DNA of 64,000 nucleotides, taken from positions 487-64,486 of the forward strand of contig JAZSCF010000049.1 of NCBI GenBank assembly GCA_045602785.1, written 5' to 3'. Both the position numbers and the translations under genes were made by a program. The notes below the pieces were generated by a model. It did no database searches. It worked only from the letters and a program-made list of their open reading frames with translations, and was not told where the DNA came from. This document shows, piece after piece, positions 2,452 to 21,337 of the stretch (its first letter is position 1; the number at the start of each line of letters is the position of its first letter). The stretch is from Acutalibacteraceae bacterium (GTDB taxonomy: Bacteria > Bacillota > Clostridia > Oscillospirales > Acutalibacteraceae).

Positions 2452-2464
2452 CCACTAGGTGGTG

Positions 2465-3040
2465 TTAATGAGTTTTAATGTTGACGGACTAATTGCTACT
2501 TTAGGCATTAGTTATTATATAATTGTTTACGCTATTGGTATTCTTGCAATGGTACTTTCGGTTATAGCGTTTCAGTTCAAACATAGAGTCACCATTGTTT
2601 TAAGTAGCTTTTTTGGTCAAAGCAGTTGGGTTGCATACTTTCTTTTGCAAGGTGACCTTACAAGCGCAATTGCTTGTGGATTAAGTGCTATAATGCTTGC
2701 GGTTTTCTCTAAAAGTGATAAATGGAAATGGGCAACGCATCCTGTAAGTATTATATTTTTTATAGTTCTTCTGTCCGCTTTTTCTCTTCTATCCTTTAAA
2801 GGCTGGATGGATATTTTTCCGCTTTTGGCAGGCGTTTTTGCAGTTATTGCAAATAGCCGAAAAACCGAAAATAGTTTACGCCTATATTCTTTATTATGGT
2901 GCCTGTTTTGGCTTATGAATAGTATATTTAAGGCATATCCTGTAGCTTTTGTAAATGATGCGTTATGTACGGCATCTACTATAATTTCTTTAATACGCTA
3001 TAGAAATATGTCTACAAAGAGTGAAGATGATAATAAATAA
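2465..3040 (+). CDS. YgjV-like inner membrane protein
   Basis: ORF 2459..3040 (GTG), first ATG at 2465. About six hydrophobic segments and a size and pattern reminiscent of the YgjV family. Confidence 0.45.
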   Translation, partial: LMSFNVDGLIATLGISYYIIVYAIGILAMVLSVIAFQFKHRVTIVLSSFFGQSSWVAYFLLQGDLTSAIACGLSAIMLAVFSKSDKWKWATHPVSIIFFIVLLSAFSLLSFKGWMDIFPLLAGVFAVIANSRKTENSLRLYSLLWCLFWLMNSIFKAYPVAFVNDALCTASTIISLIRYRNMSTKSEDDNK

Positions 3041-5002: not shown

Positions 5003-5845
5003 TTATTTTGGATAATAATGTTGACAAAATTTTTTAGGGCTTTCTCCCCAAAAACGCTTAAAGGTTTTGCTAAAGTAGTATTCATCGGGAAAATCTAAAG
5101 CTTCGGCAACCTCTCTAATATTATATTCGCCTGTAAGCAGTAGCTCAATGGCGCGTTGCGTTTTAAGATAATTTTTATATTCAATGGGTGTTTTGCCTGT
5201 AATTTCTTTAAACTTTTTTCTAAACGCGCTTTGACAAAGGCTGCAGCTTTCAGCCATAGCGGCTACATCAACCTTGGATAATGGGTTGTTTTCAATTTGG
5301 AAAATAGCGTTATAAATAGAGTCCCTTTTCTTAATTTCCTTTTTTATAGAGCTATTGAAAAGAACATATAATAGCTTTGTGAGCAGTGAAAGGCACATAA
5401 AATTAGAGCCGTAACTATGCTCAGAGCATAATTCGGTAATTTGATTAAAGTAGGAAAGATACATATCCCCATGGTCGTGCGCTATTACCGAAATATTGTT
5501 GGATATATTGATATTGGTATTATCTTTATTAGTAATTAAAAATAAAATTAAAACATGGTCAATGTTATTTTCATCTTCCCAAACCGAGTCGTATTCTACA
5601 TTGTGGGGAAGATATACAATATCACCCTTTGTAGCAGTAATTTTTCGGGTTTTAGTGCCTTGGTATTCAGTGAATTCGGTTTTGCCGTTTCTTACATAAA
5701 ACAATCGGCTATAAGGACGCATATTTTTTCTGCAAGAAAAGCTTTTTACCTGCTTTGTTTCCTTAGAGTCTTTGGCTAATATAAAGGAAATACTTATGTT
5801 TTCGTTAAAAATGTTAAAATCGTTGAACAATCCATAACACCTCAA
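5003..5845 (-). CDS. AraC family transcriptional regulator (cupin N-domain plus HTH), divergent from operon 1
   Basis: C-terminal AraC HTH (AFRKKFKEITGKTPIEYKNYLKTQRAIELL, FSKTFKRFWGESP). The start is a TTG in the ORF track and the N-terminus is uncertain. Confidence 0.8.
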   Translation of the reverse strand: MRCYGLFNDFNIFNENISISFILAKDSKETKQVKSFSCRKNMRPYSRLFYVRNGKTEFTEYQGTKTRKITATKGDIVYLPHNVEYDSVWEDENNIDHVLILFLITNKDNTNINISNNISVIAHDHGDMYLSYFNQITELCSEHSYGSNFMCLSLLTKLLYVLFNSSIKKEIKKRDSIYNAIFQIENNPLSKVDVAAMAESCSLCQSAFRKKFKEITGKTPIEYKNYLKTQRAIELLLTGEYNIREVAEALDFPDEYYFSKTFKRFWGESPKKFCQHYYPK

Positions 5846-5956
5846 TTCTTCTACTGTGTCATATTATACATTTTTTTAATTGATTTGTCTATGGTTAATT
5901 TCTTCAAAAATGATATATTTATATTAGAAAATTATTTTTGAAAGGCCGTGTGTTTT

Positions 5957-7225
5957 ATGAAACTTAATATTGGTATTGTTGGCTTTGGTGAGTTTTCTCG
6001 TACCTTTTTAGAGCTATTTTTACACCATCCTAATGTAGAAGCGGTAAAAGGTGCGGAAATTATGGATGACCGCCGCCAAGAGATTGCTAATCAGTTTGGA
6101 ATAACTATGTATTCATCGTTTGAAGAAATGCTCGAAAAAGACAAGGAACTTAATGCGGTTGCAATTTTTTCTCAAAGACATCAGCACGGTCCTATGGCGA
6201 TTGAAGCCTTAAAAGCAGGTAAGCACGTGTTCAGCGCCGTGCCTGTTGGCTGTACCGAAGAAGAAATTAAGGAAATTGTTCGTTTAGTAGAAGAAACGGG
6301 TCTTACTTATATGGCGGCTGAAACCTGCTATTATTTCCCTTGCGCAGTATTTTGCCGTGAAAAGTTTAAAACAGGCTATTTTGGTGAGTTTGTTTATGGC
6401 GAGAGCCAATATTATCATGATATTTCTGCTATGTTTGATTCATTCTCGGGTTCGGGTGGTAATGAATGGAAAAAGGTTGCAGGTGTTCCGCCTATGTATT
6501 ATTCAACCCACTCAATGTCTATGATGTTCTCTTCAATAAACGACCATCCTGTTTCAGTTACCTGCTTTGGTTATGAAGACAAAACAGGTGATGATATTTA
6601 CGGCGAAGGTAAAAACCATTGGGATAACCCATTCTCAAACGAAACTGCAATTTTCGAGATGTCTAAGGGTGGCTTTGCTAGAATAAACGAGTTTAGAAGA
6701 ATTGGTACCTTTAAACCTTCTTCTTACATAACAGGTCTTTACGGTAAGCTTGGCGCTTATGAAGGTAGCGGTATGAATCATTTTGTCATTCGTGGTGATG
6801 TAAATGAACACCCCGAAAGCGAAGATGTTAGTCACCTTATAAATGCTCAAAAATATGAAAGCGTAAAATCGCAAATAGACCAAAGTGAAGGTAGAATGAA
6901 TTATCTTAAATATCATACAGGCTATTCTGCTATTCATAATGTTGAGCGTTTGCCAAAAGAAATAGCACATTTAGAAAGTAAGTTTGGATATACACTTGAC
7001 GGGCATAATGGCACTCACGTATTCCTAGTTGATGACTTTGTGCGTGCAGTTTGTTCGAACCTTGTACCACCAAATAATATTTGGGATTCAGCCGTTTATG
7101 CTGTAGCAGGTATTACTGCGCATAATTCGGCTTTGCAGGGCGGTAAATCACTTCCTGTTCCGTTCTTTGGTAATGCGCCTGAAGGCTGGGAACAAAAGTG
7201 GGAAGAGGAATTAAAAAATAATTAA
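5957..7225 (+). CDS. Gfo/Idh/MocA family oxidoreductase (long C-terminal domain)
   Basis: IGIVGFGEFS Rossmann start and EKP-like block. ATG 5957 lies within ORF 5948..7225. Confidence 0.8.
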   Translation: MKLNIGIVGFGEFSRTFLELFLHHPNVEAVKGAEIMDDRRQEIANQFGITMYSSFEEMLEKDKELNAVAIFSQRHQHGPMAIEALKAGKHVFSAVPVGCTEEEIKEIVRLVEETGLTYMAAETCYYFPCAVFCREKFKTGYFGEFVYGESQYYHDISAMFDSFSGSGGNEWKKVAGVPPMYYSTHSMSMMFSSINDHPVSVTCFGYEDKTGDDIYGEGKNHWDNPFSNETAIFEMSKGGFARINEFRRIGTFKPSSYITGLYGKLGAYEGSGMNHFVIRGDVNEHPESEDVSHLINAQKYESVKSQIDQSEGRMNYLKYHTGYSAIHNVERLPKEIAHLESKFGYTLDGHNGTHVFLVDDFVRAVCSNLVPPNNIWDSAVYAVAGITAHNSALQGGKSLPVPFFGNAPEGWEQKWEEELKNN

Positions 7226-7244
7226 TTTTGAAAGGTTTGATTAT

Positions 7245-8030
7245 ATGAAAGTAAGCAGTTGTATTGATATGATGTTCGCAAATATGGATTTTAATGATAG
7301 AATTGAATCTGTCAAACAGTGCGGTCTGGATGGAATCGAGTTTTGGAAATGGACTAATAAGAATTTAGACGAGGTTATAGCGCTTAAAGATAAACACAAT
7401 TTAGGCTTTGCTGTATTTAATATTGATTCTACTGATGAAAAGCTTTCTTACGATCTTTCAAGGGGTATTTTAAATGCAGGTAGGGTAGAAGAGTTTTTAA
7501 AAGCTTTACAAGAAAGTATACCCGTATATAAAAGATTAAATGCATCGGCTATGATAGTGCTTGTTGGTGAAACCATAGCTGATATGCCATGTGAAGAACA
7601 AATTGAAAATGTTTATAAATGTCTTAAAGCAGCGGCACCTGTGGCTGAAGCAAACGGAATAATAATAGTGGTTGAACCGTTAAACTCTGTCGACCGCGAA
7701 AATTACTTTTTACCTTACGCTAAGGATCTTATGGATATACTTGACCGCGTAGACAGTAAAAATGTGAAAATGCTTTATGATATTTATCACCAAAATGTTA
7801 TGGGTGATTTTTCAATGGATTTCATTAAAGCTAATATTAATAGAATCGGTCATTTCCATGTTGCTGATTGCCCCGGTAGACACGAGCCAGGGACCGGTAA
7901 AGTTGATTATGTACCCATAATTGAAGAAATAAATAAAACTAATTATAGCGGTTTTATTGGTCTTGAATACAGAGCAACAAAACCCGACTGTGAAACTTTA
8001 GGTTTTTTGAAGGAGATAAAGAATGTTTAA
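7245..8030 (+). CDS. Hydroxypyruvate isomerase / inosose isomerase-like xylose-isomerase-fold TIM-barrel protein
   Basis: GLDGIEFW, VEPLNS.DRENYFL and IGHFHVADCPGRHEPGTG motifs are typical of the Hyi family. Confidence 0.7.
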   Translation: MKVSSCIDMMFANMDFNDRIESVKQCGLDGIEFWKWTNKNLDEVIALKDKHNLGFAVFNIDSTDEKLSYDLSRGILNAGRVEEFLKALQESIPVYKRLNASAMIVLVGETIADMPCEEQIENVYKCLKAAAPVAEANGIIIVVEPLNSVDRENYFLPYAKDLMDILDRVDSKNVKMLYDIYHQNVMGDFSMDFIKANINRIGHFHVADCPGRHEPGTGKVDYVPIIEEINKTNYSGFIGLEYRATKPDCETLGFLKEIKNV

Positions 8031-9096
8031 GGTTTGTATAATCGGTAGCGGTATGATAGCAAAAAGCGCTCACATACCCGCTTATAAAGAATATCCCGAA
8101 GATTTTTCAATAGTAGGTATATTTGATGTAAATAAGGAAGCTGCAAAAGAGGTTGCTAAAGAATTTGGTATTGAGAATGTATATACCGATGCTGAAACAA
8201 TGCTTAAAGAACAAAAGCCTGATTTGGTTTCGGTTTGTGCACCTAATATGTTCCATAAAACATACACATTGTTAGCGCTTAACTACGGTGCAAATGTTTT
8301 ATGTGAAAAGCCACTTGCTTTTACTTATGCGGATGCAAAAGAGATGTTTGATTTGGCTTCCGAAAAGGGCAAAACCCTTATGGCTTGCCAAAGCTTGCGT
8401 TTCTTACCTGAAAGATTAGCGGTATACGAACAGGTTAAAAATGGAAATGTTGGCGATGTTTACTATGCCGAGCTTTCAAGAATCCGCCGTAGAGGTATAC
8501 CCACTTGGGGTAAATTCCACTTAAAAGCGTTTAGCGGTGGCGGTGCACTTGTTGATATTGGTGTTCACGGTATAGATTCTGCTATTTGGCTTATGGGCAA
8601 CCCCGAACCACAAAGCGTTATCGCTAATATGAGCAAGGTTCACGCAAACGAACATGGCTCTGCCAAAAGCTCGGGCGCATTAAAGGATAATGTAACTGTT
8701 AATACTTTTGATCCTGAGCAAATGGATGTTGAATCTTTTTCAAGCGGTACAGTAAAATTCAAAAACGGCGCTGTGCTTTCGTTCAAGGTTTCTTGGGCAG
8801 CTAACTTGAAGGAAGAAAATAATATTGTTCTTTCAGGAAGCAACTGTGGTATTGATATGGAAAACCGCAAGATTTATTCAAATGCAGAAGATATTAATGA
8901 TTTAGCAGTTATTCCTAACGGCTTTAAGGATGAACCTTTTTATGGTCATTTTTGCATTGTTAAGAATATGTTAGATGTTTTAAAGGGTGTAGATGAACCG
9001 TTTATCAAACCCGAAGAAACACTTAATGTAACTGCAATACTTGAAGCGGCTTATAATTCGGCTGAGAAAGGCGAAGAGGTGGCTATTAATGTTTAG
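8023..9096 (+). CDS. Gfo/Idh/MocA family oxidoreductase
   Basis: VCIIGSGMIA Rossmann motif and CEKPLA motif. The start overlaps the preceding stop (ATGTTTAA). Confidence 0.85.
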   Translation: MFKVCIIGSGMIAKSAHIPAYKEYPEDFSIVGIFDVNKEAAKEVAKEFGIENVYTDAETMLKEQKPDLVSVCAPNMFHKTYTLLALNYGANVLCEKPLAFTYADAKEMFDLASEKGKTLMACQSLRFLPERLAVYEQVKNGNVGDVYYAELSRIRRRGIPTWGKFHLKAFSGGGALVDIGVHGIDSAIWLMGNPEPQSVIANMSKVHANEHGSAKSSGALKDNVTVNTFDPEQMDVESFSSGTVKFKNGAVLSFKVSWAANLKEENNIVLSGSNCGIDMENRKIYSNAEDINDLAVIPNGFKDEPFYGHFCIVKNMLDVLKGVDEPFIKPEETLNVTAILEAAYNSAEKGEEVAINV

Positions 9097-10186
9097 AGCA
9101 GTAATTATTGGTTTCGCACATATGCATGTTAATGAAATTGCAAAATATATTGATGAGTGTGAAGATTTTACACTTGTTGGTTTTGCAGATGTGCCTGCCG
9201 AAACCCCCGAAAAAACCGAAGCGAGATATACTCGTGCTTGGAATATTAAAAATAATGCAGAACTTTATAATATCACTCCACACGATGATTATAAAGCAAT
9301 GCTTGATGAGCTTAAACCCGATATTGCATTTATTCTTTGCGACAATGCTAATAAACCCGAGATTGTTGAAGAATGTGCTAAAAGGGGAGTTAATGTAAGC
9401 ATTGAAAAGCCTATGGCTGTAAGCTTAGAGGATGCGCTTAAGATTAAATCAAGTGTAGATAAATACGGCATTGAAGCAGTTGTAAACTGGCCTGTTATTT
9501 GGCGCCCGTTCTTACATAAACAAATTGCTGCGCTTGAAAGCGGTAAGTTTGGTAAGCTTATAAAAGCGTTTTATATTAACGGTCATACAGGTCCACTTGG
9601 TAAAGGCGCTAAGCATAGAGGCGTTACTGAAAAAGCACAGGAAATGACCGACCAAGAACGCGCATCTACTTGGTGGTATAAAAACGAAACAGGTGGCGGT
9701 GCATTTTTAGATATTGGCTGTTACGGTTGTTTCTTTAACGAATGGGTAAGGGATAACGATGATAAGCCGTTGTCGGTTATGGCATTCTCGGGCAATTATA
9801 ATCACCCTTATATGAACGCACCTGATAATATGGCAGGTATTATTGAATATAAAGATTCTTTTGGTGTTGTTGAAGGTACTTGGACTGTACCCCAGTCTTC
9901 TTTACCAAAGGGCCCTGTTTATATGTGCAGTGAAGGTGTTCTATTTTGCGATGAAAATATGGATGTAGTTGGTATGAATATTTATGGTGATAAGGTAGAA
10001 TTACCTGAATATGATATTCACCCTGCACTTAAGAATTTGCCTGACCATTATTCATATTGCAAAAAGACAGGTACACCACTATTAAAGACCGTAACTCTTG
10101 ATTTTAATATCCGCTTAATGCGACTTATTGATGCGGCTATGAAATCTGCTAAATCAGGTAAAAAAGAGATAGTTTGCGATGAATAA
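9089..10186 (+). CDS. Gfo/Idh/MocA family oxidoreductase (divergent)
   Basis: ATG 9089 (MFRAVIIGFAHMHV) overlaps the preceding stop (ATGTTTAG). Carries the SIEKPMA motif. The 9041 extension is unlikely. Confidence 0.75.
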   Translation: MFRAVIIGFAHMHVNEIAKYIDECEDFTLVGFADVPAETPEKTEARYTRAWNIKNNAELYNITPHDDYKAMLDELKPDIAFILCDNANKPEIVEECAKRGVNVSIEKPMAVSLEDALKIKSSVDKYGIEAVVNWPVIWRPFLHKQIAALESGKFGKLIKAFYINGHTGPLGKGAKHRGVTEKAQEMTDQERASTWWYKNETGGGAFLDIGCYGCFFNEWVRDNDDKPLSVMAFSGNYNHPYMNAPDNMAGIIEYKDSFGVVEGTWTVPQSSLPKGPVYMCSEGVLFCDENMDVVGMNIYGDKVELPEYDIHPALKNLPDHYSYCKKTGTPLLKTVTLDFNIRLMRLIDAAMKSAKSGKKEIVCDE

Positions 10187-10964
10187 AGCTGTGGTTGTAA
10201 ATATCCAAAGAGCTTCTGTACACGATGGCCCTGGGCTTCGTACTACTGTGTTTTTTAAAGGATGTCCTTTAAAATGCGCGTGGTGTCATAACCCCGAATC
10301 TATTGACCCTAAACCCCAAATTTTACACTATCCCGAAAAGTGCATTGGTTGCGGTTTATGTGAAGAAGGTTGCTTTTCGGGTGCTAAGGTTGTGTGTGGT
10401 AAGGAAATGACAGCAGAAGAAATATTTGCTGAAATTTTGCAAGATAAACCAAACTACGCTGGTAACGGCGGCGCTACCTTTTCGGGCGGTGAGCCGCTTA
10501 TTTACCCTAAAATTTTAAAAGAACTGATAACACTTTGCAAAAATAACGGAATTGGCACCGCTATTGAAACTTCGCTTTATCTTTTCGACCCGGAAATACT
10601 TAGTAGTGTTGATTTTGTTATGGCTGATTTTAAAATTTGGGATAACCACAAACACAAGCAATATACAGGTGTTAATAACGATATTATTAAGGAAAACTTT
10701 AAGCGGTTGGATGCACTTGGTACTCCTTTTATGGTTAGAACACCTATTATTCCTACAATTAACGATTCAGTTGATGAAATTGTAAAAATAAGAGATTTTA
10801 TAAAAGATTTTAAAAATATTGTGGATTATGAATTGTTACCATACCATTCACTTGGGGTGACAAAGCAAAAAGCTTTGGGAATTAGTGAAACGGTTTTCGA
10901 AATTCCCGAAAAAAGTAAAATGGAGTTGCTTAAGAGTTATGCTAACATTAAAGCAAAGAATTGA
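10179..10964 (+). CDS. Glycyl-radical enzyme activating protein (radical SAM)
   Basis: VHDGPGLRTTVFFKGCPLKCAWCHNPE (CxxxCxxC) plus a ferredoxin-like CIGCGLCEEGC and GGEPL. Confidence 0.9.
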   Translation: MNKAVVVNIQRASVHDGPGLRTTVFFKGCPLKCAWCHNPESIDPKPQILHYPEKCIGCGLCEEGCFSGAKVVCGKEMTAEEIFAEILQDKPNYAGNGGATFSGGEPLIYPKILKELITLCKNNGIGTAIETSLYLFDPEILSSVDFVMADFKIWDNHKHKQYTGVNNDIIKENFKRLDALGTPFMVRTPIIPTINDSVDEIVKIRDFIKDFKNIVDYELLPYHSLGVTKQKALGISETVFEIPEKSKMELLKSYANIKAKN

Positions 10965-13155
10965 TGCTATTCGTAAGACTAAGATAGACCATACACTAAT
11001 AAAGCGCGAACAAAACGGTTATACCGACCTTGATGATTTCGGCACAGTACCACTACCCGAAAATTATATAGTTAAGCCTTGGTATAACAGCGAAAACGGA
11101 AGTTTTTACGGGCTTGACGGTATGGCAGAAAACTTTTGTCGCGTAATGGATGCACACGCACCTTATGTGGACCCACTTGAGATGCTTTGTGGCAGATGGC
11201 GCGACATGCTTGTAAACTATCGCGGCGATATTCACTATATGCCTACTTGGAGAAAGGCACAACTTACTGAAGATGATTTTTCCGGTGTTACTGCTCAATG
11301 GAGTAAACGTTGGGATGAAAAGAGTTTTCCGTATGACCATTTAAAGCCTTTGCAAAAAAAATATAATATACAAACAGGTATTGATGGAGATGCCCATCTT
11401 GCTTGTGACTATACTATAGGCTTAAATTTAGGTTTTGGCGGTTTCCTTAGTAAAATAGAAAAGTACAGAAATATTAATCCCGACAAAAAGGATTTTTATG
11501 ATGCTGAGGAAAAGTGTGTTTTAGCTATTGTTCGTTTTATAGATAGACATATTGCTGAAATAGAAAAACAAATAGAGACTGAAACACGCCCCGAAATTAA
11601 GGAAAGCCTTGAAAAAATGCTTATTGTTAATAAAAACATAAGATTAGGCGCTCCTAAAACATTTTATGAAGCGTGTCAATGGGTAGCACATTTTAACTGT
11701 GCATCCCGTGTTTACACTCGCGATGGCGCAGGTTTTCAGCTTGATACCATACTTTTGCCGTATTATGAAAACGATGTTAAAAACGGCATTTTAGATGATG
11801 AAACGGCTAAGTTTTTAATCGCTAACCTTTTGCTTATTGACCCACATTATTATCAAATTTCGGGCGTGGACGTTGATGATAAGGATATAACAAATCATTT
11901 ATCTTACCTTATTCTTGAAGCGGCTGATATGATTGATATTTCCTGTAACTTAACCGTTCGTGTTCACGAAAACTGCGACAAAGCTTTCTTTGATAAGGCG
12001 GTTTATTACCTTTTGAAGAACAAAAACGGTTGGCCGCGTTTTTGTAGCGATAAAAATTTATGTGAAGGCTATATGAAAAACGGCATTTCTAAAGAGATTG
12101 CACGTAAGCGTATTGCTGTTGGTTGTAACTGGATGTGCGTTCCAGGAATAGAATTTCCTATGAACGACACTGTTAAAATTAACATTGCAAAGGTGCTTGA
12201 AAACGCTTTGGAAGATATGAAAGCAGAGCCTTTAAAGTCTACAAATAGACTTTTCGAGCTTTTTGAAGAGCATCTTAAAATAGCAACAGATGTAACTGCA
12301 CAAGGTATAAATCTTCATATAGACCATCAAGCAGAAGTAACACCCGAGCTTATTATGAATCTTATGATGGAGGATACACTCGAAAAAGGTCTTGATATTT
12401 CGCAGTGTGCAAAGCTTTATACAGTGGGCGTAGACGGTGCTGGGCTTGCCGTTGTTGCTGATAGCTTTGGTGCTTTGGAACTTCGCGTAGAAACTGAAAA
12501 GCTTCTTTCTTGGGATGAAGTTTACGAAAACCTACAAAACAATTTTGATGGTGTTAAGGGCGAGAGAACAAGACTTTTGCTTAATTCCACACCAAAGTAT
12601 TGCGGTGGTGATACTGTTTCGGATAAGTGGGCTAAAAAGATTACTGATATTTGGGTAAAAACAATTAAGGCTCAAGAAATGCCTGAGGGCAGACAGTTAG
12701 TTCCCGGTTGGTTTAGTTGGGCGCGTACTATTGAGTATGGTAAAGCAGTAGGTGCAACACCTAACGGCAGAAAAGCCTTTGAACCGATTTCACATGGCGC
12801 TAATCCAAATCCACATTTCAGAACAGACGGTGCGGTTACTGCGCAATCAAACGGTATTGCTGCAGTACAATGCGGTTACGGTAATACAGCACCATTGCAA
12901 ATTGAGTTTGACCCCAAGCTCGCTGATGACAGTAAGGGTGTTGAGGTTGTAGGTAACCTTGTTAAGAGCCATTTTGAACAGGGTGGTACACTAATAAACA
13001 TAAATGTTCTTGATACCGAAAAGCTTATGGAAGCACATAAAAACCCCGAAACACATCCCGATTTGGTTGTTCGTGTTACAGGCTTTACTGCTTATTTTGC
13101 AAGTTTGTCACCTGAATTTAGACAGCTTGTTGTTGAAAGATTTTTGACCGATTAG
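10939..13155 (+). CDS. Glycyl radical enzyme, PFL-like fold, divergent (738 aa)
   Basis: C-terminal glycyl radical motif VVRVTGFTAYF (Gly715), GATPNGR block and candidate Cys loop VGCNWMCVPG. ATG 10939 lies within ORF 10885..13155. Confidence 0.85.
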   Translation: MLTLKQRIDAIRKTKIDHTLIKREQNGYTDLDDFGTVPLPENYIVKPWYNSENGSFYGLDGMAENFCRVMDAHAPYVDPLEMLCGRWRDMLVNYRGDIHYMPTWRKAQLTEDDFSGVTAQWSKRWDEKSFPYDHLKPLQKKYNIQTGIDGDAHLACDYTIGLNLGFGGFLSKIEKYRNINPDKKDFYDAEEKCVLAIVRFIDRHIAEIEKQIETETRPEIKESLEKMLIVNKNIRLGAPKTFYEACQWVAHFNCASRVYTRDGAGFQLDTILLPYYENDVKNGILDDETAKFLIANLLLIDPHYYQISGVDVDDKDITNHLSYLILEAADMIDISCNLTVRVHENCDKAFFDKAVYYLLKNKNGWPRFCSDKNLCEGYMKNGISKEIARKRIAVGCNWMCVPGIEFPMNDTVKINIAKVLENALEDMKAEPLKSTNRLFELFEEHLKIATDVTAQGINLHIDHQAEVTPELIMNLMMEDTLEKGLDISQCAKLYTVGVDGAGLAVVADSFGALELRVETEKLLSWDEVYENLQNNFDGVKGERTRLLLNSTPKYCGGDTVSDKWAKKITDIWVKTIKAQEMPEGRQLVPGWFSWARTIEYGKAVGATPNGRKAFEPISHGANPNPHFRTDGAVTAQSNGIAAVQCGYGNTAPLQIEFDPKLADDSKGVEVVGNLVKSHFEQGGTLININVLDTEKLMEAHKNPETHPDLVVRVTGFTAYFASLSPEFRQLVVERFLTD

Positions 13156-13196: not shown

Positions 13197-14024
13197 TTAT
13201 ATTGTTTTTATTGAATTTCTATAAATAGATGGCGCCACACCATATTCACGAGAAAAAATATTGCAAAAATGATTAGGATTTTCTATTCCAATTTCATTTG
13301 TTATTTCAGCGATTGACATATCAGTAAATGCAAGAAGTTCTGCCGCTTTTGTAAGGCGGAATTTTTTTATATATTTGTGAAGTGTAAGACCCGAATGGTG
13401 TTGTAAAACATTACTTAAATAAAACGAATGATAACCGAGTGCGTTGGCAACATCATCGTTTGATTTAATAGTTTTATAGTTGTTGGAAATATAATTTATA
13501 ATTTCATTGTAAAGGTGATTACCTTTTTGGTTTTTATATTCAGCAAGCTTTAATAATGCACATTTTAAGTACGATTCGGCAATTTCGTTAGCGTATATTG
13601 TATTTTTTTTGTACTCCTTTTCGGTGTTGATTAAAATTTCTTCAATAAATTGTGCATTAGGAATTACAAATGCTTCACGAAATAGCTCAATTTCACATTC
13701 GTTCTGTGAGAAAATTCCTAATTCATTAACAAATTTGTTGGATTTTATGGGTGTTAAGAAGTTTTGTATATGTTTGTTTTGGTGTGATAAGTCGAAGTTT
13801 ATAACAATGAATTTTAGCGGATTATCGCTTGAAGATAAGGGATAATATTCTATTCCCGTTGGACAGTAGCAAAAAGAACCTCTTGTAAGCGGGTAACGAT
13901 CATTTGCAAGTAATATTTCTCCTTCACCATCGAGAATATAAAATATTCTTAAATCGTAAGCCTTGGTTGGAAACTTGTTTGGCAGACAATCAGTTTTAGC
14001 TAAATATCGTATAAATAAATCCAT
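13197..14024 (-). CDS. AraC family transcriptional regulator, divergent from operon 2
   Basis: Cupin-like N-domain and C-terminal HTH (LHKYIKKFRLTKAAELL, FCNIFSREYGVAPS). Confidence 0.85.
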   Translation of the reverse strand: MDLFIRYLAKTDCLPNKFPTKAYDLRIFYILDGEGEILLANDRYPLTRGSFCYCPTGIEYYPLSSSDNPLKFIVINFDLSHQNKHIQNFLTPIKSNKFVNELGIFSQNECEIELFREAFVIPNAQFIEEILINTEKEYKKNTIYANEIAESYLKCALLKLAEYKNQKGNHLYNEIINYISNNYKTIKSNDDVANALGYHSFYLSNVLQHHSGLTLHKYIKKFRLTKAAELLAFTDMSIAEITNEIGIENPNHFCNIFSREYGVAPSIYRNSIKTI

Positions 14025-14175
14025 TTTTTAACTCCTTAAGTACTCATTGATTTAATTATATCACTAATTTAAACATTTTCAATAATAAATATTTGTTTTA
14101 GTGAGATTTTAATTTGATATGACTGTTTACTATAACGCAATTTAAAGGTAAAATATAATGGATGGGGTGTTATGA

Positions 14176-15189
14176 ATGAAATATTTGGTTGGATTACAAG
14201 TTAATAACGATGCTCTTATATCTGAAATAATTAAAAATAAAGAATCTATTAGCGAAGTATATTTTTCTTGGGGAGATTTTCCTAATGGAAGAAGCACCCT
14301 TGATACTACCGGCAGTCTTACATTATTTGAAATGCAACAGCTTATGGTTTCTAATTTAAATAAACTAATAGCTTCAGGCATTGATTTTAATTTATTATTA
14401 AATGCAAACTGCTATGGTGCAAATAGTCAGTCAAAAAGTTTTTTTAATAAAATAGGTAACACTCTCGATTATATTAAAACAAATTTTGGTTTAAAAGCAG
14501 TTACCACAACTTCGCCCTTAATTGCAAAGTTTGTAAAGCAAAATTTTCCGCAGCTAGAGGTTAGGGCTTCTGTAAATATGGAAATTGGTACAACTATTGG
14601 TATGGATTACATAGCAGATTTATTTGATAGTTTTTATCTTAAACGTGAATATAATAGAAACTTACAAATTGTTACTAAAGCAAGAGAGTGGTGTAATGCA
14701 AACGGTAAAAAGCTTTACGGACTTGCCAATAGTGGTTGCTTGAATTTTTGTTCTACCCATATTTTTCATGATAATTTAGTAGCACATGAAAGCGAAATTG
14801 CGGAAAAGGATAATGGATATCAGTTTGTTGGACAATGTTGGGATTATTTAAAGAAAGCAGAAAAACAAGAAAAATGGCTTTCGATTACAAATTTTATTCG
14901 CCCTGAGGATGTTTATTTATACGATGGCTTATTTGACGGATTAAAGCTTGCAACAAGGGTTAATAAAAATCCTGCTAAAATCATTCAATCGTATTGTAAT
15001 TCATCTTATAACGGTGCGATAACCGATTTGCTTGAGCCCAATCATTCAGGGGTATTTTATCCAAATGTTATTGATAATAAATCGATTTCGAAAGATTTCG
15101 CGCAAACGGTTCTTAAATGTTCGAAAAAGTGTGATGAGTGTAATTATTGCGATCAAATACAAAAAAATGCTACAGTTGTTTTAGAATAG
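14176..15189 (+). CDS. U32-peptidase-family-like protein (putative Fe-S TIM-barrel enzyme) with C-terminal CxxxCxxCxxC
   Basis: By-eye colinearity with U32 blocks (EVYFSWGDFPNGRS; FNLLLNAN; TTTSPLIAKFVKQNFPQLEVRASVN; YLKREYN; LANSGCLNFCS). C-terminal Cys315/319/322/325. Confidence 0.4.
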   Translation: MKYLVGLQVNNDALISEIIKNKESISEVYFSWGDFPNGRSTLDTTGSLTLFEMQQLMVSNLNKLIASGIDFNLLLNANCYGANSQSKSFFNKIGNTLDYIKTNFGLKAVTTTSPLIAKFVKQNFPQLEVRASVNMEIGTTIGMDYIADLFDSFYLKREYNRNLQIVTKAREWCNANGKKLYGLANSGCLNFCSTHIFHDNLVAHESEIAEKDNGYQFVGQCWDYLKKAEKQEKWLSITNFIRPEDVYLYDGLFDGLKLATRVNKNPAKIIQSYCNSSYNGAITDLLEPNHSGVFYPNVIDNKSISKDFAQTVLKCSKKCDECNYCDQIQKNATVVLE

Positions 15190-15200
15190 GAGTTTAAATT

Positions 15201-16283
15201 ATGCTTAGTAGTAAATTAATCAAAGAAGCAGCGCTTGCTGCAGGTGCCGATGTTTGCGGTATCGCGCCTATCAGTAGAATGAAGGGTGCTCCTGATGAAA
15301 TGAATCCAATGTTTCTATTCCCCGAAGCCAAAAGTATGATAGGATTTGTTTTTCGTATTCCACGTGGTGTTCAAAGGGGGATTGAAGAAGGAACTCAATT
15401 TTATCAGTATCCCTCTATGGCGTATGGTGGCATAAACGAGATTTTTGCCCCTGCAGTACTTTATAGCGTTGGCAAGGTTATAGAAGATAATGGTTATGAG
15501 GCGTTTGTATATAGAAATACAGGAGCCAGAGGCTGTGTTTCCGATATGGACGGCAGCGAGGGTAATACTCTTTCGCCTGAAGAACAAATTGAAGTAAACG
15601 AAAATGCCAAGACCTCTACCGCACATCATAGGAATGTGCAATTTACTCGCGCGACTAGGGAAGATAATGTTCCACCTGATTTACAGTTTCAGTTTAGATT
15701 AGCGGCTGTTGCTTGCGGCCTTGGTGAAATTGGTTGGAGTAAAATGCTATTAACACCCGAATTTGGTCCTTTACAGCGTGTGGCATTTATTTTTACTGAT
15801 GCAGAATTCGATGAATATGATGAAATGTATAACGGTGAGTCACTTTGCCGTAAGTGCGGTGCATGTGTCAGAGAATGCCCGGGCGGTTGTATTCCGGCAA
15901 TCAATTCGGGTAAAAAAATTACTGTTCAAATTGAAGACAAAATTTCTGAGTGGGGTGACATAGATATGTGGCGTTGCTATGCCTTTTATACCCACGCGGG
16001 AAGATACTATAACCCCTTTGTTCCTAAAGAAGTTTGGGATAAGAACGAGAACGGTGCGCTTGACTTAATGGAAGGTGTTACCAATATTGCTAATGAACAG
16101 GAAATTATGAAGGTTTATACTGCGCTTCAAAAATATTTTCCAAGCTGGGTTGGATACAATATGGCTAAATGTGGTGGTTGTATTAGAGCTTGCGTTTCTA
16201 TGCTTGAGAAAAAAGGCGGTTGTATGGAAGGACGTTTTAAAGAACCGTTAAGAACGAAAAAGGCTTGGAAGTTGGACAGATGA
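15201..16283 (+). CDS. QueG / reductive-dehalogenase superfamily Fe-S protein, paralogue 1 (360 aa)
   Basis: N-terminus LIKEAALAAGADVCGIA, CGLGEIGWSKMLLTPEFGPLQR block, CRKCGACVRECP ferredoxin motif and second Cys cluster KCGGCIRAC. Confidence 0.7.
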   Translation: MLSSKLIKEAALAAGADVCGIAPISRMKGAPDEMNPMFLFPEAKSMIGFVFRIPRGVQRGIEEGTQFYQYPSMAYGGINEIFAPAVLYSVGKVIEDNGYEAFVYRNTGARGCVSDMDGSEGNTLSPEEQIEVNENAKTSTAHHRNVQFTRATREDNVPPDLQFQFRLAAVACGLGEIGWSKMLLTPEFGPLQRVAFIFTDAEFDEYDEMYNGESLCRKCGACVRECPGGCIPAINSGKKITVQIEDKISEWGDIDMWRCYAFYTHAGRYYNPFVPKEVWDKNENGALDLMEGVTNIANEQEIMKVYTALQKYFPSWVGYNMAKCGGCIRACVSMLEKKGGCMEGRFKEPLRTKKAWKLDR

Positions 16284-16624
16284 TTGACATATCGAATTTT
16301 TGCGGCAAAGATTTTAAGGTTGTAACCGAAGCGGAAAAATGGAAAATAGGTTTTTTAAGATATTCCGATAGATTTTCAAAGTTTACTGCATTGGAACGGC
16401 ATTTGTTAACTGATGAAGCTTTTATTTTGCTAAAAGGCAAAGCGGTTCTTTATATCGAAAACGAAAATGGTGTTATAGTTAAGTATAAAATGAAAAAGCT
16501 ACAGGTATACAATGTTCGTGAAAAAGTGTGGCATCATATAACAGTTAGCAAAAATGCAACCGTAATGGTTGTAGAAAACCAAAACACAAGTAAGGAAAAT
16601 ACAGAAAGGCGGAGTCTAATATGA
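16280..16624 (+). CDS. Small cupin-fold protein (ERH motif, ureidoglycolate-lyase-like)
   Basis: ATG 16280 overlaps the paralogue 1 stop (ATGA). ALERHLLTDEAFILLKG and a beta-rich profile. Its stop overlaps the next start. Confidence 0.4.
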   Translation: MIDISNFCGKDFKVVTEAEKWKIGFLRYSDRFSKFTALERHLLTDEAFILLKGKAVLYIENENGVIVKYKMKKLQVYNVREKVWHHITVSKNATVMVVENQNTSKENTERRSLI

Positions 16625-17523
16625 ATCTTCTTACTAAAGAACAAATTAAAATAAAGGCTAAAGAATTAGGAGCCAGTGTATGTGGTGTTGGAAAGGTTTA
16701 TGAAGAGACTAACCCGCAGCGTGACCCTAAAATGATTTTACCAAATGCCAAATGTATTATTGGCTTTGGTTTTGCAGTACCAAAGGGATTATATCTTACA
16801 ATGGATATAAAATCTCAATACTATTCTTACACTTCAATGGGAGTTAAATATATCGACGAAGAAATGGCGGAGATATTTTTACTTAAAATAGGTGGTATAA
16901 TTGAAAACGAAGGTTACGATGCATGTCTTCAAAAAGCAATACCAAATCTTCGTATAAAGGGAGATACGACAACTAACCCAGAGGTAATGGATACATATGA
17001 GCTTATCCATGCACAAGCGGTAGAAGTCGGCAAGCCTGTACCTGACGTGATTATTGATTTTGGCAAGGCTGCCAAAGCTTGTGGCATTGGTGAAATGGGA
17101 CTTAGCGGTAAAATTATAAATAAAGATTATGGTCCTTTTATGCGTTACTGTTTTATTATTACGGATATGCCCTTAGAACCCGATGAAATAAAAAACGAAG
17201 TGATTTGTGATAATTGCGGTGAATGCATAAAGGCTTGCCCCGGTAATGCTATAAGTGATAACGGACTTGATACTTGGCAATGCGCTGTATACTATAAAGG
17301 TGCACATAAATCTAATCCCTTTATTACAGATGAATTTTTAAAGGGTAATCCCGAACGTGAAGCAATTCTTAACGGCGAAAAGCGTTTTGATGTTGAGAGC
17401 GCAAGAGAAATCTACAAAGAAATGAATTTCTTACCTAATACGCAATGGGGTTATGCACCTTGCCTTTGCGGTAAAAAATGCGATGTTGCTTGTTATAGGC
17501 ATTTGAAAGGGGAGTTGAAGTAA
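16621..17523 (+). CDS. QueG / reductive-dehalogenase superfamily Fe-S protein, paralogue 2 (300 aa)
   Basis: AKELGASVCGVG, CGIGEMGLSGKIINKDYGPFMRY, CDNCGECIKACPGNAIS and CLCGKKCDVAC. Confidence 0.7.
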   Translation: MNLLTKEQIKIKAKELGASVCGVGKVYEETNPQRDPKMILPNAKCIIGFGFAVPKGLYLTMDIKSQYYSYTSMGVKYIDEEMAEIFLLKIGGIIENEGYDACLQKAIPNLRIKGDTTTNPEVMDTYELIHAQAVEVGKPVPDVIIDFGKAAKACGIGEMGLSGKIINKDYGPFMRYCFIITDMPLEPDEIKNEVICDNCGECIKACPGNAISDNGLDTWQCAVYYKGAHKSNPFITDEFLKGNPEREAILNGEKRFDVESAREIYKEMNFLPNTQWGYAPCLCGKKCDVACYRHLKGELK

Positions 17524-18458
17524 TGAAACGTGAAATCATTAAGATTGCGAAAGAAAACTTTGCGGATATTGTTGGATTTGCAAGTGCTAAAAGTTTTGAC
17601 GAAAACGACCCTATTTTTAAAATATTTCCGGAAACTAAAACTGTTATTGGTCTAGCTTTCAGAGTTTTAAGAGGTGCATATAGAGGTACAGAAGAAGGAA
17701 CTACATATTATCAATATACAACTATGGCAGTTGAAAATATGGAAGAAACCATAATGCCAATGGCACAACTAAGAATTGCAAACTTTATTGAAAGTAAAGG
17801 CTATATTGCTGTTCCGCAACGACGCCATCAACAAATTATGGCAGAAGAAAATAGCACTAATCCCGAAGTTGCTTATGATGCGATTTTTAGAAACAAAACT
17901 GCCGAGAATCAAATGAATTTTGTTGACGCTGCTGTAAAATGCGGCATTGGTGAAAAGGGGCTTTCGGGTGCGATTTTAACAGATGATTATGGCCCTATGG
18001 TTAGATATTGCTTTATTCTAACCAATTTGGTAATTGAGCCTGATTCAGTTAAAGAAGCGCATCTTTGCGATAATTGTGGAAAATGTGTTATGGCGTGTCC
18101 TGGTAAAGCAATTAGTGAAAACGGCGTGCTCGACGCTTGGCAATGCGCAGTTTATTATAATGGTGCTAATGGTACTAAAAATCCTTTTATGCCACCGGAT
18201 GCTTTTTCTAAATTAGATAACCGACTTGAAATTATTGCCGGTGAAGCAAGAGTTACACCTGAAACCGCTAAGAAAATCCTTGATGAAATTTTCTTTTATC
18301 CGCCGGCACAGCATGCATATCAATGTTCAATATGTGGCAGAGCGTGCGATACTGCTTGTTATATCCATTTGGAAGAAAAGGGTGTTTTAAACAAAAAATT
18401 CAAACGTCCTTTTAGAACACGGGATGAATGGAAATTTGATATAACTGATTTTGAATAA
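17523..18458 (+). CDS. QueG / reductive-dehalogenase superfamily Fe-S protein, paralogue 3 (311 aa)
   Basis: CGIGEKGLSGAILTDDYGPMVRY, CDNCGKCVMACPGKAIS and CSICGRACDTAC. The start overlaps the paralogue 2 stop by 1 nt. Confidence 0.7.
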   Translation: MKREIIKIAKENFADIVGFASAKSFDENDPIFKIFPETKTVIGLAFRVLRGAYRGTEEGTTYYQYTTMAVENMEETIMPMAQLRIANFIESKGYIAVPQRRHQQIMAEENSTNPEVAYDAIFRNKTAENQMNFVDAAVKCGIGEKGLSGAILTDDYGPMVRYCFILTNLVIEPDSVKEAHLCDNCGKCVMACPGKAISENGVLDAWQCAVYYNGANGTKNPFMPPDAFSKLDNRLEIIAGEARVTPETAKKILDEIFFYPPAQHAYQCSICGRACDTACYIHLEEKGVLNKKFKRPFRTRDEWKFDITDFE

Positions 18459-18479
18459 TTATTTAAATAGGTGTTTAAT

Positions 18480-20189
18480 ATGAACATTAGAGTAGTGAAA
18501 AAAGATAATACTATTATCGAACTGCAACCCGAAATTACTATCAATAAAGAAAAAACTATAGTCAAACTATCAAAGGATAAAATTCCAACTGATATTAAAT
18601 ACGTTGATTTTCTTTATGATTTTTTTGTTGCAAATATTGGTGATAAAGGCTATTTTGTACTACCCTTAAACTGCGAACAGGGGGTATGCGTAACATATTT
18701 TAAAAATAGAAACGATACCGAGTTTGCTACTAATTTTTCTCATATATGCTGCTATGGTTATAAAAAAGAAAACGGTGGTATTATGGGTATAATAACAGGC
18801 TGCAGAGAGTATTATGCTGTTGTCGCAGGTGTTAAGGATGGCATATATTATGCATATCCACGATTTATGCTTGATGGTTTTAAAGCCTATGAAGATATTG
18901 TGATAGAATACTACAACCTTGAAAACGGCGATTATTCCGAAATGGCAAGTCTTTATAGAAAAATACAGTTAGAGCGTTACGGCTGTATACCTTTGAGCGA
19001 AAGGGTGAAAAATAACGAAATACTTGCAAAGGCCGCTAAAAGTATAGCAGTACGTGTGCGCCAAGGATGGAAGCCGGCACCGAGTGCTGTTGAAAATCAA
19101 ACACTTGAAACTGAACCCGAAATGTATGTCGCTTGTGATTTTGATAGAACAACACAGCTTGTTGAAGAATTTTCAAAGCAGGGTATAGACGGTGCTGAAT
19201 TTTGTCTTGTTGGTTGGAGTCGTATGGGTCACGATGGCAGGTATCCGCAAATATTTCCTGTAGAGCCATTACTCGGTGGTGAAGAAAAGCTTAAAGAACT
19301 TATTAGTAAGACAAAATCGCTTGGATATAATATTGTTGGTCACGATAATGCTTCGGATGCTTATACAGTATCAGAGCTTTGGGATGAAGAATATCTTTTA
19401 AAGAATAATGACGGAAGTCTACATAAAATTGATATATGGTCAAGCGGTAGAGCACATAAAATTTGTCCAAAGCGTTATTATGAGCTTTTCGGTAAGGAAC
19501 ACTTGACACAATTAAAAGAGCTTGGCTTTGAGGGTGTACACTATATTGATGTAATAACAATTCTTTCTTTGTTAGAATGTCACGATAAAAACCACCCACT
19601 TACCCGTAAAGAAACAGCCGAGTGGTATAATAGACTTATGCAAGAGTCAAAAGAAACCTTTGGCGGTATTTCTTCTGAATCGGGTTATGATTATGCGGCG
19701 GCAGTACTCGATTTTGCGCTATATACATCTTTTTTCTTATCAGGTGTAGGGCTGCCTGAAATTTGTGATAAACCAATTCCATTTTGGCAAATTGTATTCC
19801 ATGGTATTATTCTTTATAATCCCGGTACATTTACGTTGAACTATGCTGCAAAGGGTACAGAAAACCGTTTAAGGTATTTCGAATACGGCGGTAGACCGCT
19901 TGTATGCGTATATGCTAACTTTGCTAACGGTAAAGATTGGATGGGACTTGAAGACTTCCGTTGTGATACTGATGCCGAAATGCAAGAGTCTGTTTCAAAG
20001 ATAAAAACTATGTATAACGATTATAAATGGATGGAAGAAGTCCGTTTTGCCTTTATAGAAAGCCATAATGAAGTTAGCGATAATGTTTTTGAAATTATGT
20101 ATTCTAACGGCATAAAAATCACTGTTGACTATAATACTGCAACCGTCACTATGAACGGAAATGGCATAGAAAAGGTTTTAAAAATTTAA
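18480..20189 (+). CDS. Hypothetical 569-aa cytoplasmic protein, possibly a glycoside-hydrolase-like TIM barrel (DUF5696-like from memory)
   Basis: SD AGGTG then ATG 18480. No signal peptide. The segment GAEFCLVGWSRMGHDGRYPQIFPVEPLLGGEEKLKELI..LGYNIVGHDN resembles GH-type (beta/alpha)8 proteins. Confidence 0.3.
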   Translation: MNIRVVKKDNTIIELQPEITINKEKTIVKLSKDKIPTDIKYVDFLYDFFVANIGDKGYFVLPLNCEQGVCVTYFKNRNDTEFATNFSHICCYGYKKENGGIMGIITGCREYYAVVAGVKDGIYYAYPRFMLDGFKAYEDIVIEYYNLENGDYSEMASLYRKIQLERYGCIPLSERVKNNEILAKAAKSIAVRVRQGWKPAPSAVENQTLETEPEMYVACDFDRTTQLVEEFSKQGIDGAEFCLVGWSRMGHDGRYPQIFPVEPLLGGEEKLKELISKTKSLGYNIVGHDNASDAYTVSELWDEEYLLKNNDGSLHKIDIWSSGRAHKICPKRYYELFGKEHLTQLKELGFEGVHYIDVITILSLLECHDKNHPLTRKETAEWYNRLMQESKETFGGISSESGYDYAAAVLDFALYTSFFLSGVGLPEICDKPIPFWQIVFHGIILYNPGTFTLNYAAKGTENRLRYFEYGGRPLVCVYANFANGKDWMGLEDFRCDTDAEMQESVSKIKTMYNDYKWMEEVRFAFIESHNEVSDNVFEIMYSNGIKITVDYNTATVTMNGNGIEKVLKI

Positions 20190-20205
20190 TGAAATGATTT
20201 ATTTA

Positions 20206-20236
20206 AAAACCGTACTAAAATGAGTACGGTTTTTGG
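20206..20236 (+). terminator. Rho-independent terminator of operon 2
   Basis: aaaaccgtact / agtacggtttt stem followed by a T-run. Confidence 0.85.
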
Positions 20237-20290
20237 TTGCAATATATTTTTTGGTGTGCTATACTGAACAGGATAAAGGAAGTGACACCT

Positions 20291-21337
20291 ATGTACAAAA
20301 ACGCTTGCGAAAAATTAGATAATTTTATTGCGGATTATTATAATCGTTATAAAAATTCAGGTAGCCTTAGAGTTACTTATAAAGACGAAATAATTTATGA
20401 AAAAAGCTTTGGCTTTGCGAATATTGAAAAGGAACTTCCTTTTACAAAAGAATCAATTTTTTCTTTTTACTCACTATCAAAGCCTTTTTGTGCTATAGGT
20501 CTTCTAAAACTAAAAGATAAAAAGCTTGTTGATATAGATGCTCATCCGTCTAAATATCTTCCCGAAACAAAAGGCTTTGATGAAAATGTAACAATCAGGC
20601 AAATGCTACACCATATTAGCGGTTTGCCTGATTTTAATCAAACGGCAAAGTTTGAGCAAAAATATAAGACAGGTTTTTCGTTCGAGTTGCGTGACCATTT
20701 AAAAGAACTAACTAATTATTCAATGGTATTTGCACCCGGCACAAAGGGAATGTATGCCAATATTAACTTTATAATTCCCGCTTTGATTATTGAAATTGTT
20801 ACGGGTATGAGTTACGGAGAATATATGAAAAAGGAAGTTTTCGAGCCTCTTGGAATGAGAACCGCAATGGTTGATAATGAAAACTTGTTGTCGGATAATC
20901 GCGTAACAGGTTACGAATTATCGAAAGATAAAAAAATTATTCCCATTGACAGAATGCTTAACTGGACTTTTGGTGCAGCAGATATTGTTGGAACTGTAGA
21001 AGATGTTTATTGCTTAAATAAGGCTATTAAACACAAGCTTATATTAAGCCCGGAAATTTGGGATGAGGTTTTAATACCGTCGCCAATTAATTCTATGGGT
21101 ATGGGCTGTACAGTGAGCACTTGGCATAACAAAAAGCGCATAACCCATAATGGCGGTTGGGATGGCTTTAGAACGCTTCATATACAACTACCCGAAGATG
21201 ATTTTGATATAATATTTTTATCAAACTCGGCTTGGGGTAATGCACGAAATGATATTGCTGAAGCAGTTTATGAAGCTTTTTACGGTGATGATAATGCTGT
21301 ATCTGAAGAAGTGAAAATGGATGCAGGCTATATTTGA
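20291..21337 (+). CDS. Serine hydrolase / beta-lactamase-related family protein
   Basis: SxxK motif (FYSLSKPF) and HHISGLPD. SD AAGGAAGTG precedes ATG 20291. Confidence 0.75.
   Translation: MYKNACEKLDNFIADYYNRYKNSGSLRVTYKDEIIYEKSFGFANIEKELPFTKESIFSFYSLSKPFCAIGLLKLKDKKLVDIDAHPSKYLPETKGFDENVTIRQMLHHISGLPDFNQTAKFEQKYKTGFSFELRDHLKELTNYSMVFAPGTKGMYANINFIIPALIIEIVTGMSYGEYMKKEVFEPLGMRTAMVDNENLLSDNRVTGYELSKDKKIIPIDRMLNWTFGAADIVGTVEDVYCLNKAIKHKLILSPEIWDEVLIPSPINSMGMGCTVSTWHNKKRITHNGGWDGFRTLHIQLPEDDFDIIFLSNSAWGNARNDIAEAVYEAFYGDDNAVSEEVKMDAGYI

Follow-up and report, generated by a model that had tools for sequence, protein, structure and literature searches.

A widespread gene cluster of gut and rumen anaerobes that joins three QueG/RdhA-like iron–sulfur modules to a divergent U32-type protein

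The DNA analysed here (hereafter the window) is a stretch of 64,000 nt from an Acutalibacteraceae bacterium (GCA_045602785.1, contig JAZSCF010000049.1, positions 487 to 64,486). The region under study, at window positions 13197–20189, contains an operon in which three paralogous iron–sulfur (Fe-S) proteins, related to QueG and to the reductive dehalogenases RdhA, are encoded next to a divergent protein of U32 type. Six genes follow one another on the plus strand: g1 (14176..15189, 337 aa), the divergent U32-type TIM-barrel protein; g2 (15201..16283, 360 aa), an RdhA-like module; g3 (16280..16624, 114 aa, with an ATG start), a small cupin; g4 (16621..17523, 300 aa) and g5 (17523..18458, 311 aa), two QueG/RdhA-like modules; and g6 (18480..20189), a predicted glycosidase resembling glycoside hydrolase families GH129 and GH101, of 569 aa from its ATG or 572 aa from an alternative GTG upstream at 18471. 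They diverge from an AraC-family regulator gene on the minus strand (13197..14024), in whose product Pfam recognises an N-terminal sensor domain (Cupin_2) and a C-terminal double helix-turn-helix (HTH_18, E 3.5e-18; HTH_AraC). The intergenic control region between this gene and g1 (151 bp, 14025..14175) holds promoter-like hexamers on both strands, identified by consensus matches only, at 14082-14055 on the minus strand (11/12 consensus matches with TG) and at 14126-14154 on the plus strand.

The stop and start codons of g2/g3, g3/g4 and g4/g5 overlap in the sequences ATGA, ATATGA and TAATG, so that g2 to g5 are translationally coupled. The operon is closed by an intrinsic terminator on the plus strand (20203..20236) with a 14-bp stem, a 6-nt loop and a T-run; this hairpin, which a simple terminator scan had not picked up, has a folding energy of −16 kcal/mol (z = −4.9), and none of 200 shuffled sequences was as stable. 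Beyond it lies a gene for a beta-lactamase-fold, D-aminopeptidase-like protein (20279-21337; Pfam Beta-lactamase, E 1e-42), also found downstream in a close relative (L007) and probably without any relation to the operon. None of the six N-termini, as read from the translations, shows an RR motif or a hydrophobic leader. All six products are thus predicted to be cytoplasmic, with neither signal nor twin-arginine translocation (TAT) peptides, and no gene for an RdhB-like anchor is present in the operon. Cysteines are numerous in g1 (10), g2 (13), g4 (14) and g5 (11). Since g1 and g5 have 4471 and 2500 database homologues, respectively, they are real genes and not chance open reading frames. A first-pass annotation, made from the letters and their translations, had already described the six co-directional genes with their divergent AraC gene, the overlaps, the strong terminator, the lack of export signals and at least four Cys-rich products, all of which is borne out by the present reading.

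The three modules are 38–43% identical to each other (43% for g4 versus g5) and, like g1, have no Pfam or NCBIfam family above cutoff. Their NCBIfam matches are to the reductive-dehalogenase (RDH; TIGR02486, 36–49 bits for a cutoff of 160) and QueG (TIGR00276, 23–48 bits for a cutoff of 200) models alone, with RDH at E 6e-9 and a QueG match for g2, and QueG at E 1.7e-12 and RDH at E 1.9e-12 for g4. The closest PDB sequence to g2 is that of PceA (8q4h, E 4.6e-12), over a match that takes in the RdhA-type ferredoxin-domain insert and the N-terminal 'GADLVGIAP' motif. QueG is the nearest PDB sequence to g4 and g5, the latter matching 5d08 with E 1.9e-10 by sequence and 1.8e-13 with a profile; an hhalign comparison of the g5 family with Escherichia coli QueG spans both Fe-S motifs (probability 95.9%, E 6e-9). 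The exact g5 sequence is not on record, and relatives 80–99% identical to it were examined in its place. In its AlphaFold 2 (AF2) model (predicted local distance difference test, pLDDT, of 73 overall and above 90 in the core of the N-domain), a nitroreductase-type N-domain is followed by a ferredoxin domain, which is the architecture of class III B12 enzymes. All 46 PDB fold matches of this model with E ≤ 0.001 are QueG, PceA or NpRdhA (best E 4.6e-10), and the next ones are the B12-handling proteins MMACHC and CblD (E 0.02–0.08); this fold evidence for the trio comes from the g5 model, to which g2 and g4 are tied by their 38–43% identity.

Each paralogue carries a CxxCxxCxxxCP motif, a W-x-C and a C-terminal Cys triplet (C216xxCxxCxxxCP, W-R-C259 and C324xxCxxxC331 in g2; C196xxCxxCxxxCP, W-Q-C221 and C283x3C287x3C291 in g4), and these residues are invariant in the orthologues too. 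The eight Cys follow the QueG/RdhA pattern and are therefore enough for two [4Fe-4S] clusters per protein. Also invariant in all three is the Arg of a 'GPxxR' motif (g2 R193, g4 R175, g5 R161), which HMMER alignments set, for g2 and g5, in the column of PceA Arg305, the catalytic partner of the PceA Tyr; QueG has no such Arg (PMC4646009). Directly before a long helix, an invariant Y-x-Y (g5 Y63/Y65) occupies the place of the QueG DYH motif according to a manual register in a low-confidence loop, and is a candidate counterpart of the Tyr conserved over the corrin in this class (QueG Tyr101/105, PceA Tyr246). Besides, all three paralogues have an acidic residue at −12 from an (A/C)G(L/I)G motif, but the topology suggests that the true equivalent of the QueG catalytic Asp would come directly behind strand 3, at a point where they differ from each other.

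With QueG (5d08, 5d6s), to which g4 and g5 are nearest in sequence and fold, the modules share the nitroreductase-type N-domain, a ferredoxin domain for two [4Fe-4S] clusters in which the first Cys of the second motif is displaced, and the cytoplasmic location. They differ from it by an insert of roughly 60 residues between the Fe-S motifs and by the lack of the DYH motif, of the catalytic Asp and of the C-terminal HEAT-like tRNA-binding domain (PMC4646009), all three proteins ending shortly after the Fe-S domain in the hhalign comparison. A further difference is that the window system consists of three paralogues together with a U32-like partner under an AraC regulator. The likeness to RdhA (PceA 4uqu and 8q4h; NpRdhA 4ras and 6zxu) lies in the ferredoxin insert of g2, the N-terminal motif and the Arg305 column. 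Unlike RdhA systems, the operon has no TAT signal and, by Pfam and NCBIfam, neither an RdhB anchor nor a fused NAD(P)H-reductase module; it has three full modules of eight Cys each, and their genomic setting is one of glycosidases and a U32-like protein, in fermenters of the gut rather than in organohalide respirers. The sequence matches, the fold, the Cys pattern and the sub-cutoff scores place g2, g4 and g5 firmly in the class III superfamily, as neither QueG nor RdhA proper.

A profile search run exhaustively over 1.8 billion representative proteins returned 5201 relatives. Among the best 150 of them, about twenty are proteins of 750–813 aa with three modules in one chain, the middle one being devoid of the Cys motifs. 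These fused proteins come from metagenomes (P0301, P0305, P0327, P0349 and others; loci L091-L095) and adjoin genes for sugar ABC transporters and pectate-lyase-like beta-helix proteins, with regulators of IclR or GntR type. One such locus combines a sugar ABC transporter with a PF12831 FAD oxidoreductase and a URO-D-like gene, another an IclR regulator with pectate-lyase-like beta-helix genes, and in L093 a separate protein resembling g2 comes after the fusion. The protein encoded downstream of fusion P0301 was considered as a counterpart of g1 and rejected (hhalign E 0.17). Gene fusion is a classical indicator of interaction between proteins that are separate elsewhere. Because the trio is translationally coupled, keeps the order g2-(g3)-g4-g5 across loci and is found as three-in-one fusions elsewhere, we infer that g2, g4 and g5 assemble into one hetero-complex, the stoichiometry of which we leave tentative. 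A precedent for multi-module assemblies in the superfamily is given by NpRdhA, which is cytoplasmic and carries an extra, vestigial cobalamin-type module (PMC12219181).

The partner of the trio, g1, has no Pfam or NCBIfam family match, PF01136 (Peptidase_U32) included; among 49 homologues, 11 match PF01136 weakly (best E 4e-4). With its 4471 homologues, it represents a large protein family that has no current model in either database. Its AF2 model is confident (pLDDT 91), and among PDB folds it comes closest to the U32 protein Mk0906 (5d88; E 2.7e-11, target-normalised TM score 0.72), which leads the other matches by five orders of magnitude. Against a small alignment of U32 proteins, hhalign gives a weak though collinear match (probability 26%, E 7e-4). 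When g1 is aligned by MAFFT with UbiU, UbiV, TrhP and RlhA, residues Y29, R39, S132, R157-E158, C188, C221, K257 and R261 co-align, giving counterparts of the U32 motifs GADAVY..R, RELS, HGALC and KIEGR; this alignment, which has no statistical support of its own, also brings two of the four cluster-Cys columns (UbiU C169/C176/C193/C232) into coincidence. Nine Cys are invariant in the g1 family, including Cys79/173/188/192/221 and a C-terminal C315x3C319x2C322x2C325, and because of this set and of its C-terminal motif g1 is a probable Fe-S protein. The TIM-barrel fold and the anaerobic setting are shared with the known U32 enzymes (UbiU/UbiV, TrhP, RlhA), whereas the extra C-terminal Cx3Cx2Cx2C, the absence of a UbiT-like partner, a context related neither to RNA nor to quinones and the linkage to three QueG/RdhA-like proteins set g1 apart from them.

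A scan of one genome per species for relatives of g1 gave at least 524 matching stretches, the best 80 of which were examined. The core g1+g2+g4+g5 is complete in 63 of these 80 loci; sixteen are cut by contig ends and a single one has g1 alone. The hosts are Clostridia (Oscillospiraceae, Acutalibacteraceae, Christensenellaceae and others), Lentisphaeria/Victivallales and one verrucomicrobial metagenome-assembled genome, from goat, sheep, deer, buffalo and human gut samples that include wild and domestic herbivores as well as hunter-gatherers. The genes are collinear in 58 of the complete loci, and g2-g4-g5 is divergent from g1 in the other five (L035, L037, L041, L054, L073), with an AraC gene in between in all of these except L073. 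In these five the trio is only 56–63% identical to the window proteins, and they show the system in a second form that is more remote from the one in the window. An AraC gene was found inside the fetched flanks of 48 of the 63 complete loci. Across the complete loci, the median identity to the window protein is highest for g2 (87%), followed by g4 (73%), g5 (67%), g1 (55%), g3 (51%), g6 (38%) and AraC (29%). With identities of up to 96%, g2 is far better conserved than the other proteins of the cluster, and it has a conserved loop of its own at residues 103–127 ('YRNTGARG.VSDMDG..GN.LSPEE'). Its near-invariance probably reflects selection rather than recent transfer, since the divergence of g1 and AraC in these loci is normal. 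The cluster is therefore real and widely conserved in strictly anaerobic gut and rumen bacteria.

The two remaining genes of the operon are optional accessories outside this core. The cupin g3, present in 19 of the 63 complete loci, has weak Ureidogly_lyase, Cupin_2 and WbuC-cupin matches and is homologous (E 1.4e-8) to CA_C3497 of Clostridium acetobutylicum (PDB 3d0j), a protein of solved structure with no function assigned. The g6 protein, present in 16 of them, is placed by Pfam in DUF5696 (E 2.7e-44) and DUF6259, and over about 420 residues (141–562) it matches the GH129 alpha-N-acetylgalactosaminidase NagBb (PDB 5wzn, E 3.6e-15), with weaker PDB matches to GH101 and to 3,6-anhydro-D-galactosidase; these enzymes serve as comparators for g6 only. 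Its D357 ('YIDV') and E400 ('SSES') are invariant in 16 orthologues and align with NagBb positions 435 and 478, which we take to be the nucleophile and the acid/base. We therefore consider g6 to be a predicted (beta/alpha)8 glycosidase of GH129/GH101 type with its candidate catalytic Asp and Glu kept. Its specificity probably differs from that of NagBb, since g6 does not retain several NagBb residues that are exchanged for Ala in the variant structure 5wzq; for example, 'LDGW' reads 'LVGW' in g6.

The families named in the first-pass annotation (U32-like protein, three QueG/RdhA-like proteins, cupin and TIM-barrel hydrolase) are upheld by these comparisons, and all components are members of known superfamilies. 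It had further proposed that the six genes form an unrecognised module. No published description of the cluster was found in the literature on DUF5696, on QueG, RdhA and U32 homologues and on RdhA-like genes of gut and rumen, nor was an assigned pathway. The cluster is indeed strongly conserved in other genomes, with the core complete in 63/80 loci, but the frequencies of g3 and g6 reduce the conserved unit to four genes and their AraC regulator.

Around the core, we surveyed 126 flanking proteins from the first 41 related loci (L001-L051). Besides g3 and g6, GH88/105-like (alpha/alpha)6 proteins adjoin the core in about seven loci, and YgjV-family membrane proteins are encoded in or beside the core operon in six. 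Oxidoreductases of the Gfo/Idh/MocA family recur nearby, and GH28, GH43, beta-helix and PF12831 FAD-oxidoreductase proteins appear occasionally; the GH88/105-like, GH28, GH43 and beta-helix genes adjoin the core in several lineages. This branch of the superfamily thus tends to recur in inducible loci with which fermentative anaerobes use glycans or glycosides. The YgjV-family protein could be a substrate importer; in L020 its gene (12120-12701) is inserted between g2 and g3, and the window itself encodes such a protein (Imp-YgjV) at 2459-3040.

Upstream of the region, the window also holds a separate AraC-controlled operon (5003-13155). It encodes three Gfo/Idh/MocA oxidoreductases (5948-7225, 8023-9096 and 9041-10186), a TIM barrel resembling xylose isomerase (7245-8030), a glycyl-radical activase (10179-10964) and a glycyl radical enzyme (GRE) that is short (756 aa; 10885-13155) and scores below every NCBIfam equivalog cutoff. 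The listed reading frame of the latter, from a GTG at 10885, shares 80 nt with the end of the activase gene, and its true start probably lies further downstream. The same GRE operon adjoins the core in three of the 80 loci (L007, L081, L056) and other GREs do so in two more, which by a rough estimate is about the rate expected by chance; the GRE was hence rejected as a part of the system.

On these grounds, our proposal for the locus is an inducible reductase system of the cytoplasm with multiple Fe-S clusters, and we give a probability of about 0.45 to this reading together with the following mechanism. The AraC sensor would turn the operon on upon arrival of a small-molecule inducer, and low-potential electrons would then flow from the fermentative ferredoxin pool into the [4Fe-4S] chains of the three modules. 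There they would reduce a base-off cobamide, whose use is probable, to Co(I), which could reductively cleave a C–O bond (or, less likely, a C–halogen bond) of a cyclic small molecule, the RdhA-type Arg and probably the Tyr donating a proton. The reductive C–O cleavage performed by QueG, from epoxide to alkene, serves as a model for such chemistry. As for g1, it may prepare or further convert the same molecule, or be the terminal catalyst fed by the modules. The substrate would derive from imported plant or host glycans or glycosides through g6, GH88/105-like or YgjV-type proteins, where these are present, with the small cupin g3 as an optional helper. The electron donor, the bond type and the substrate class are put forward tentatively in this scheme, and the chemistry may be catabolic, detoxifying or other. 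Anthropogenic substrates such as chlorinated sweeteners were rejected, given that the cluster is ancient, spans three phyla and is found in wild herbivores and hunter-gatherers.

Several observations weigh against this proposal. No gene for an electron donor or for cobamide metabolism is found in the operon or in the annotated part of the window, and Rfam has no match anywhere in the window, which thus contains no cobalamin riboswitch. Since no sequence motif marks cobalamin binding in class III enzymes (PMC4646009), the presence of a cobamide cannot be read from the sequence, and a corrinoid in g2, g4 and g5 is something we infer. The DYH motif of QueG and its catalytic Asp are not conserved in the three paralogues, hhalign found no significant alignment of the N-terminal domain to QueG, and the equivalence of the Tyr depends on a manual register in a part of the g5 model (residues 54–67) where the pLDDT is below 50. 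The hetero-complex, for its part, is deduced from gene organisation and fusions. Finally, the neighbours other than g3 and g6 are heterogeneous, with 134 Pfam families for 126 flanking proteins and none seen more than five times, and in some loci (L001) the core lies amid housekeeping genes. The glycan link is for these reasons a tendency only, and the idea of a fixed pathway around the core was dropped on the same counts.

The missing DYH motif and Asp would also suit a cobamide-free trio, i.e. a multi-[4Fe-4S] electron scaffold, possibly with vestigial module(s), that feeds g1 as the U32-type catalyst of an O2-independent reaction such as a UbiU/V-, TrhP- or RlhA-like hydroxylation, or a dehydration. 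The linkage of g1 to the trio in the examined loci, the U32 motif residues and Cys that line up in the MAFFT alignment and the lack of Cys motifs in the middle module of the fused relatives point in the same direction, as do the vestigial cobalamin-type domains known in catabolic RdhAs (PMC12219181). However, all three window paralogues keep their eight Cys, the RdhA-type Arg and the Y-x-Y, and the most constrained protein is g2 rather than g1. Moreover, since the related fused systems occur without a g1-like partner, the modules can function without a U32 protein, and we regard the scaffold as unlikely, if far from negligible. Corrinoid methyltransferases canonically combine a TIM barrel and a corrinoid carrier, and g1 and the modules would match this layout if g1 were a metal-bearing barrel that activated a methylated substrate (e.g. 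a methyl-ether sugar of pectin or xylan) while the modules carried Co(I)/CH3-Co(III) and used their own Fe-S clusters for reductive reactivation. Such methyl transfer or O-demethylation is improbable: the pectin and hemicellulose genes near some loci would fit it, and so would the URO-D-family (MtaA-type fold) gene that shares an operon with one fused relative, but this neighbour was met only once, Pfam and NCBIfam detect no pterin or coenzyme M methyltransferase and no Rossmann-type B12-binding domain in the operon, and we know of no methyl transfer by a class III enzyme.

Even less credence can be given to a cytoplasmic set of catabolic-type dehalogenases that would strip the halogen from a natural product or a glycoside, whether to detoxify it or to dispose of electrons. 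PceA is indeed the nearest relative of g2, the RdhA Arg305 equivalent is invariant, and cytosolic RdhA-like proteins without TAT signal are known (PMC12219181), yet the modules stay at 36–49 bits where the RDH model asks for 160, the hosts ferment polysaccharides in gut and rumen habitats poor in organohalides, and the core is accompanied by glycosidases and the U32 protein but never by RdhB, RdhC or RdhK. In the same vein, the resemblance to QueG and to the U32 proteins TrhP and RlhA, whose families act on modified RNA bases, might evoke nucleoside or RNA modification, or a queuosine-related salvage system. We judge this very improbable, as proteins of 300–360 aa leave out the HEAT-like tRNA-binding domain of QueG (domain layout in PMC4646009) and its DYH motif is missing, while the AraC control, the patchy distribution and the association with a glycosidase are of the type of accessory catabolism and not of housekeeping RNA modification.

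We therefore retain the inducible Fe-S reductase system, probably with a cobamide, as the preferred reading of the locus. To our knowledge, dehalogenation and epoxyqueuosine reduction are the only established activities of class III B12 enzymes, and the U32 family is so far known to us only for O2-independent hydroxylations. In the paper on the QueG structure, further class III families were foreseen that would be hard to find for want of a cofactor motif (PMC4646009). The cluster described here is a concrete candidate for such a family, given its abundance (thousands of protein clusters besides the 524 or more stretches), its presence in fibre degraders, its highly constrained subunit and its tie to a U32 protein. 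A bolder extension, which we hold to be possible but doubtful, is that it represents a fourth branch of class III, in which a heterotrimeric or fused Co/Fe-S reductase and a U32 barrel would perform a new O2-independent step of glycan or glycoside catabolism, for example a reductive deoxygenation, or the cleavage of an ether, in a phenolic or sugar-derived ring.

To conclude, our results bring to light a widely conserved four-gene system in gut and rumen fibre degraders, most of which are uncultured. Should its substrate be found, an anaerobic reaction new to the breakdown of dietary or host glycans and glycosides might emerge, and with it a new demand for cobamides in the gut ecosystem. If the fourth-branch extension were true, it would amount to a catabolic step common to hundreds of species of gut and rumen from three phyla.

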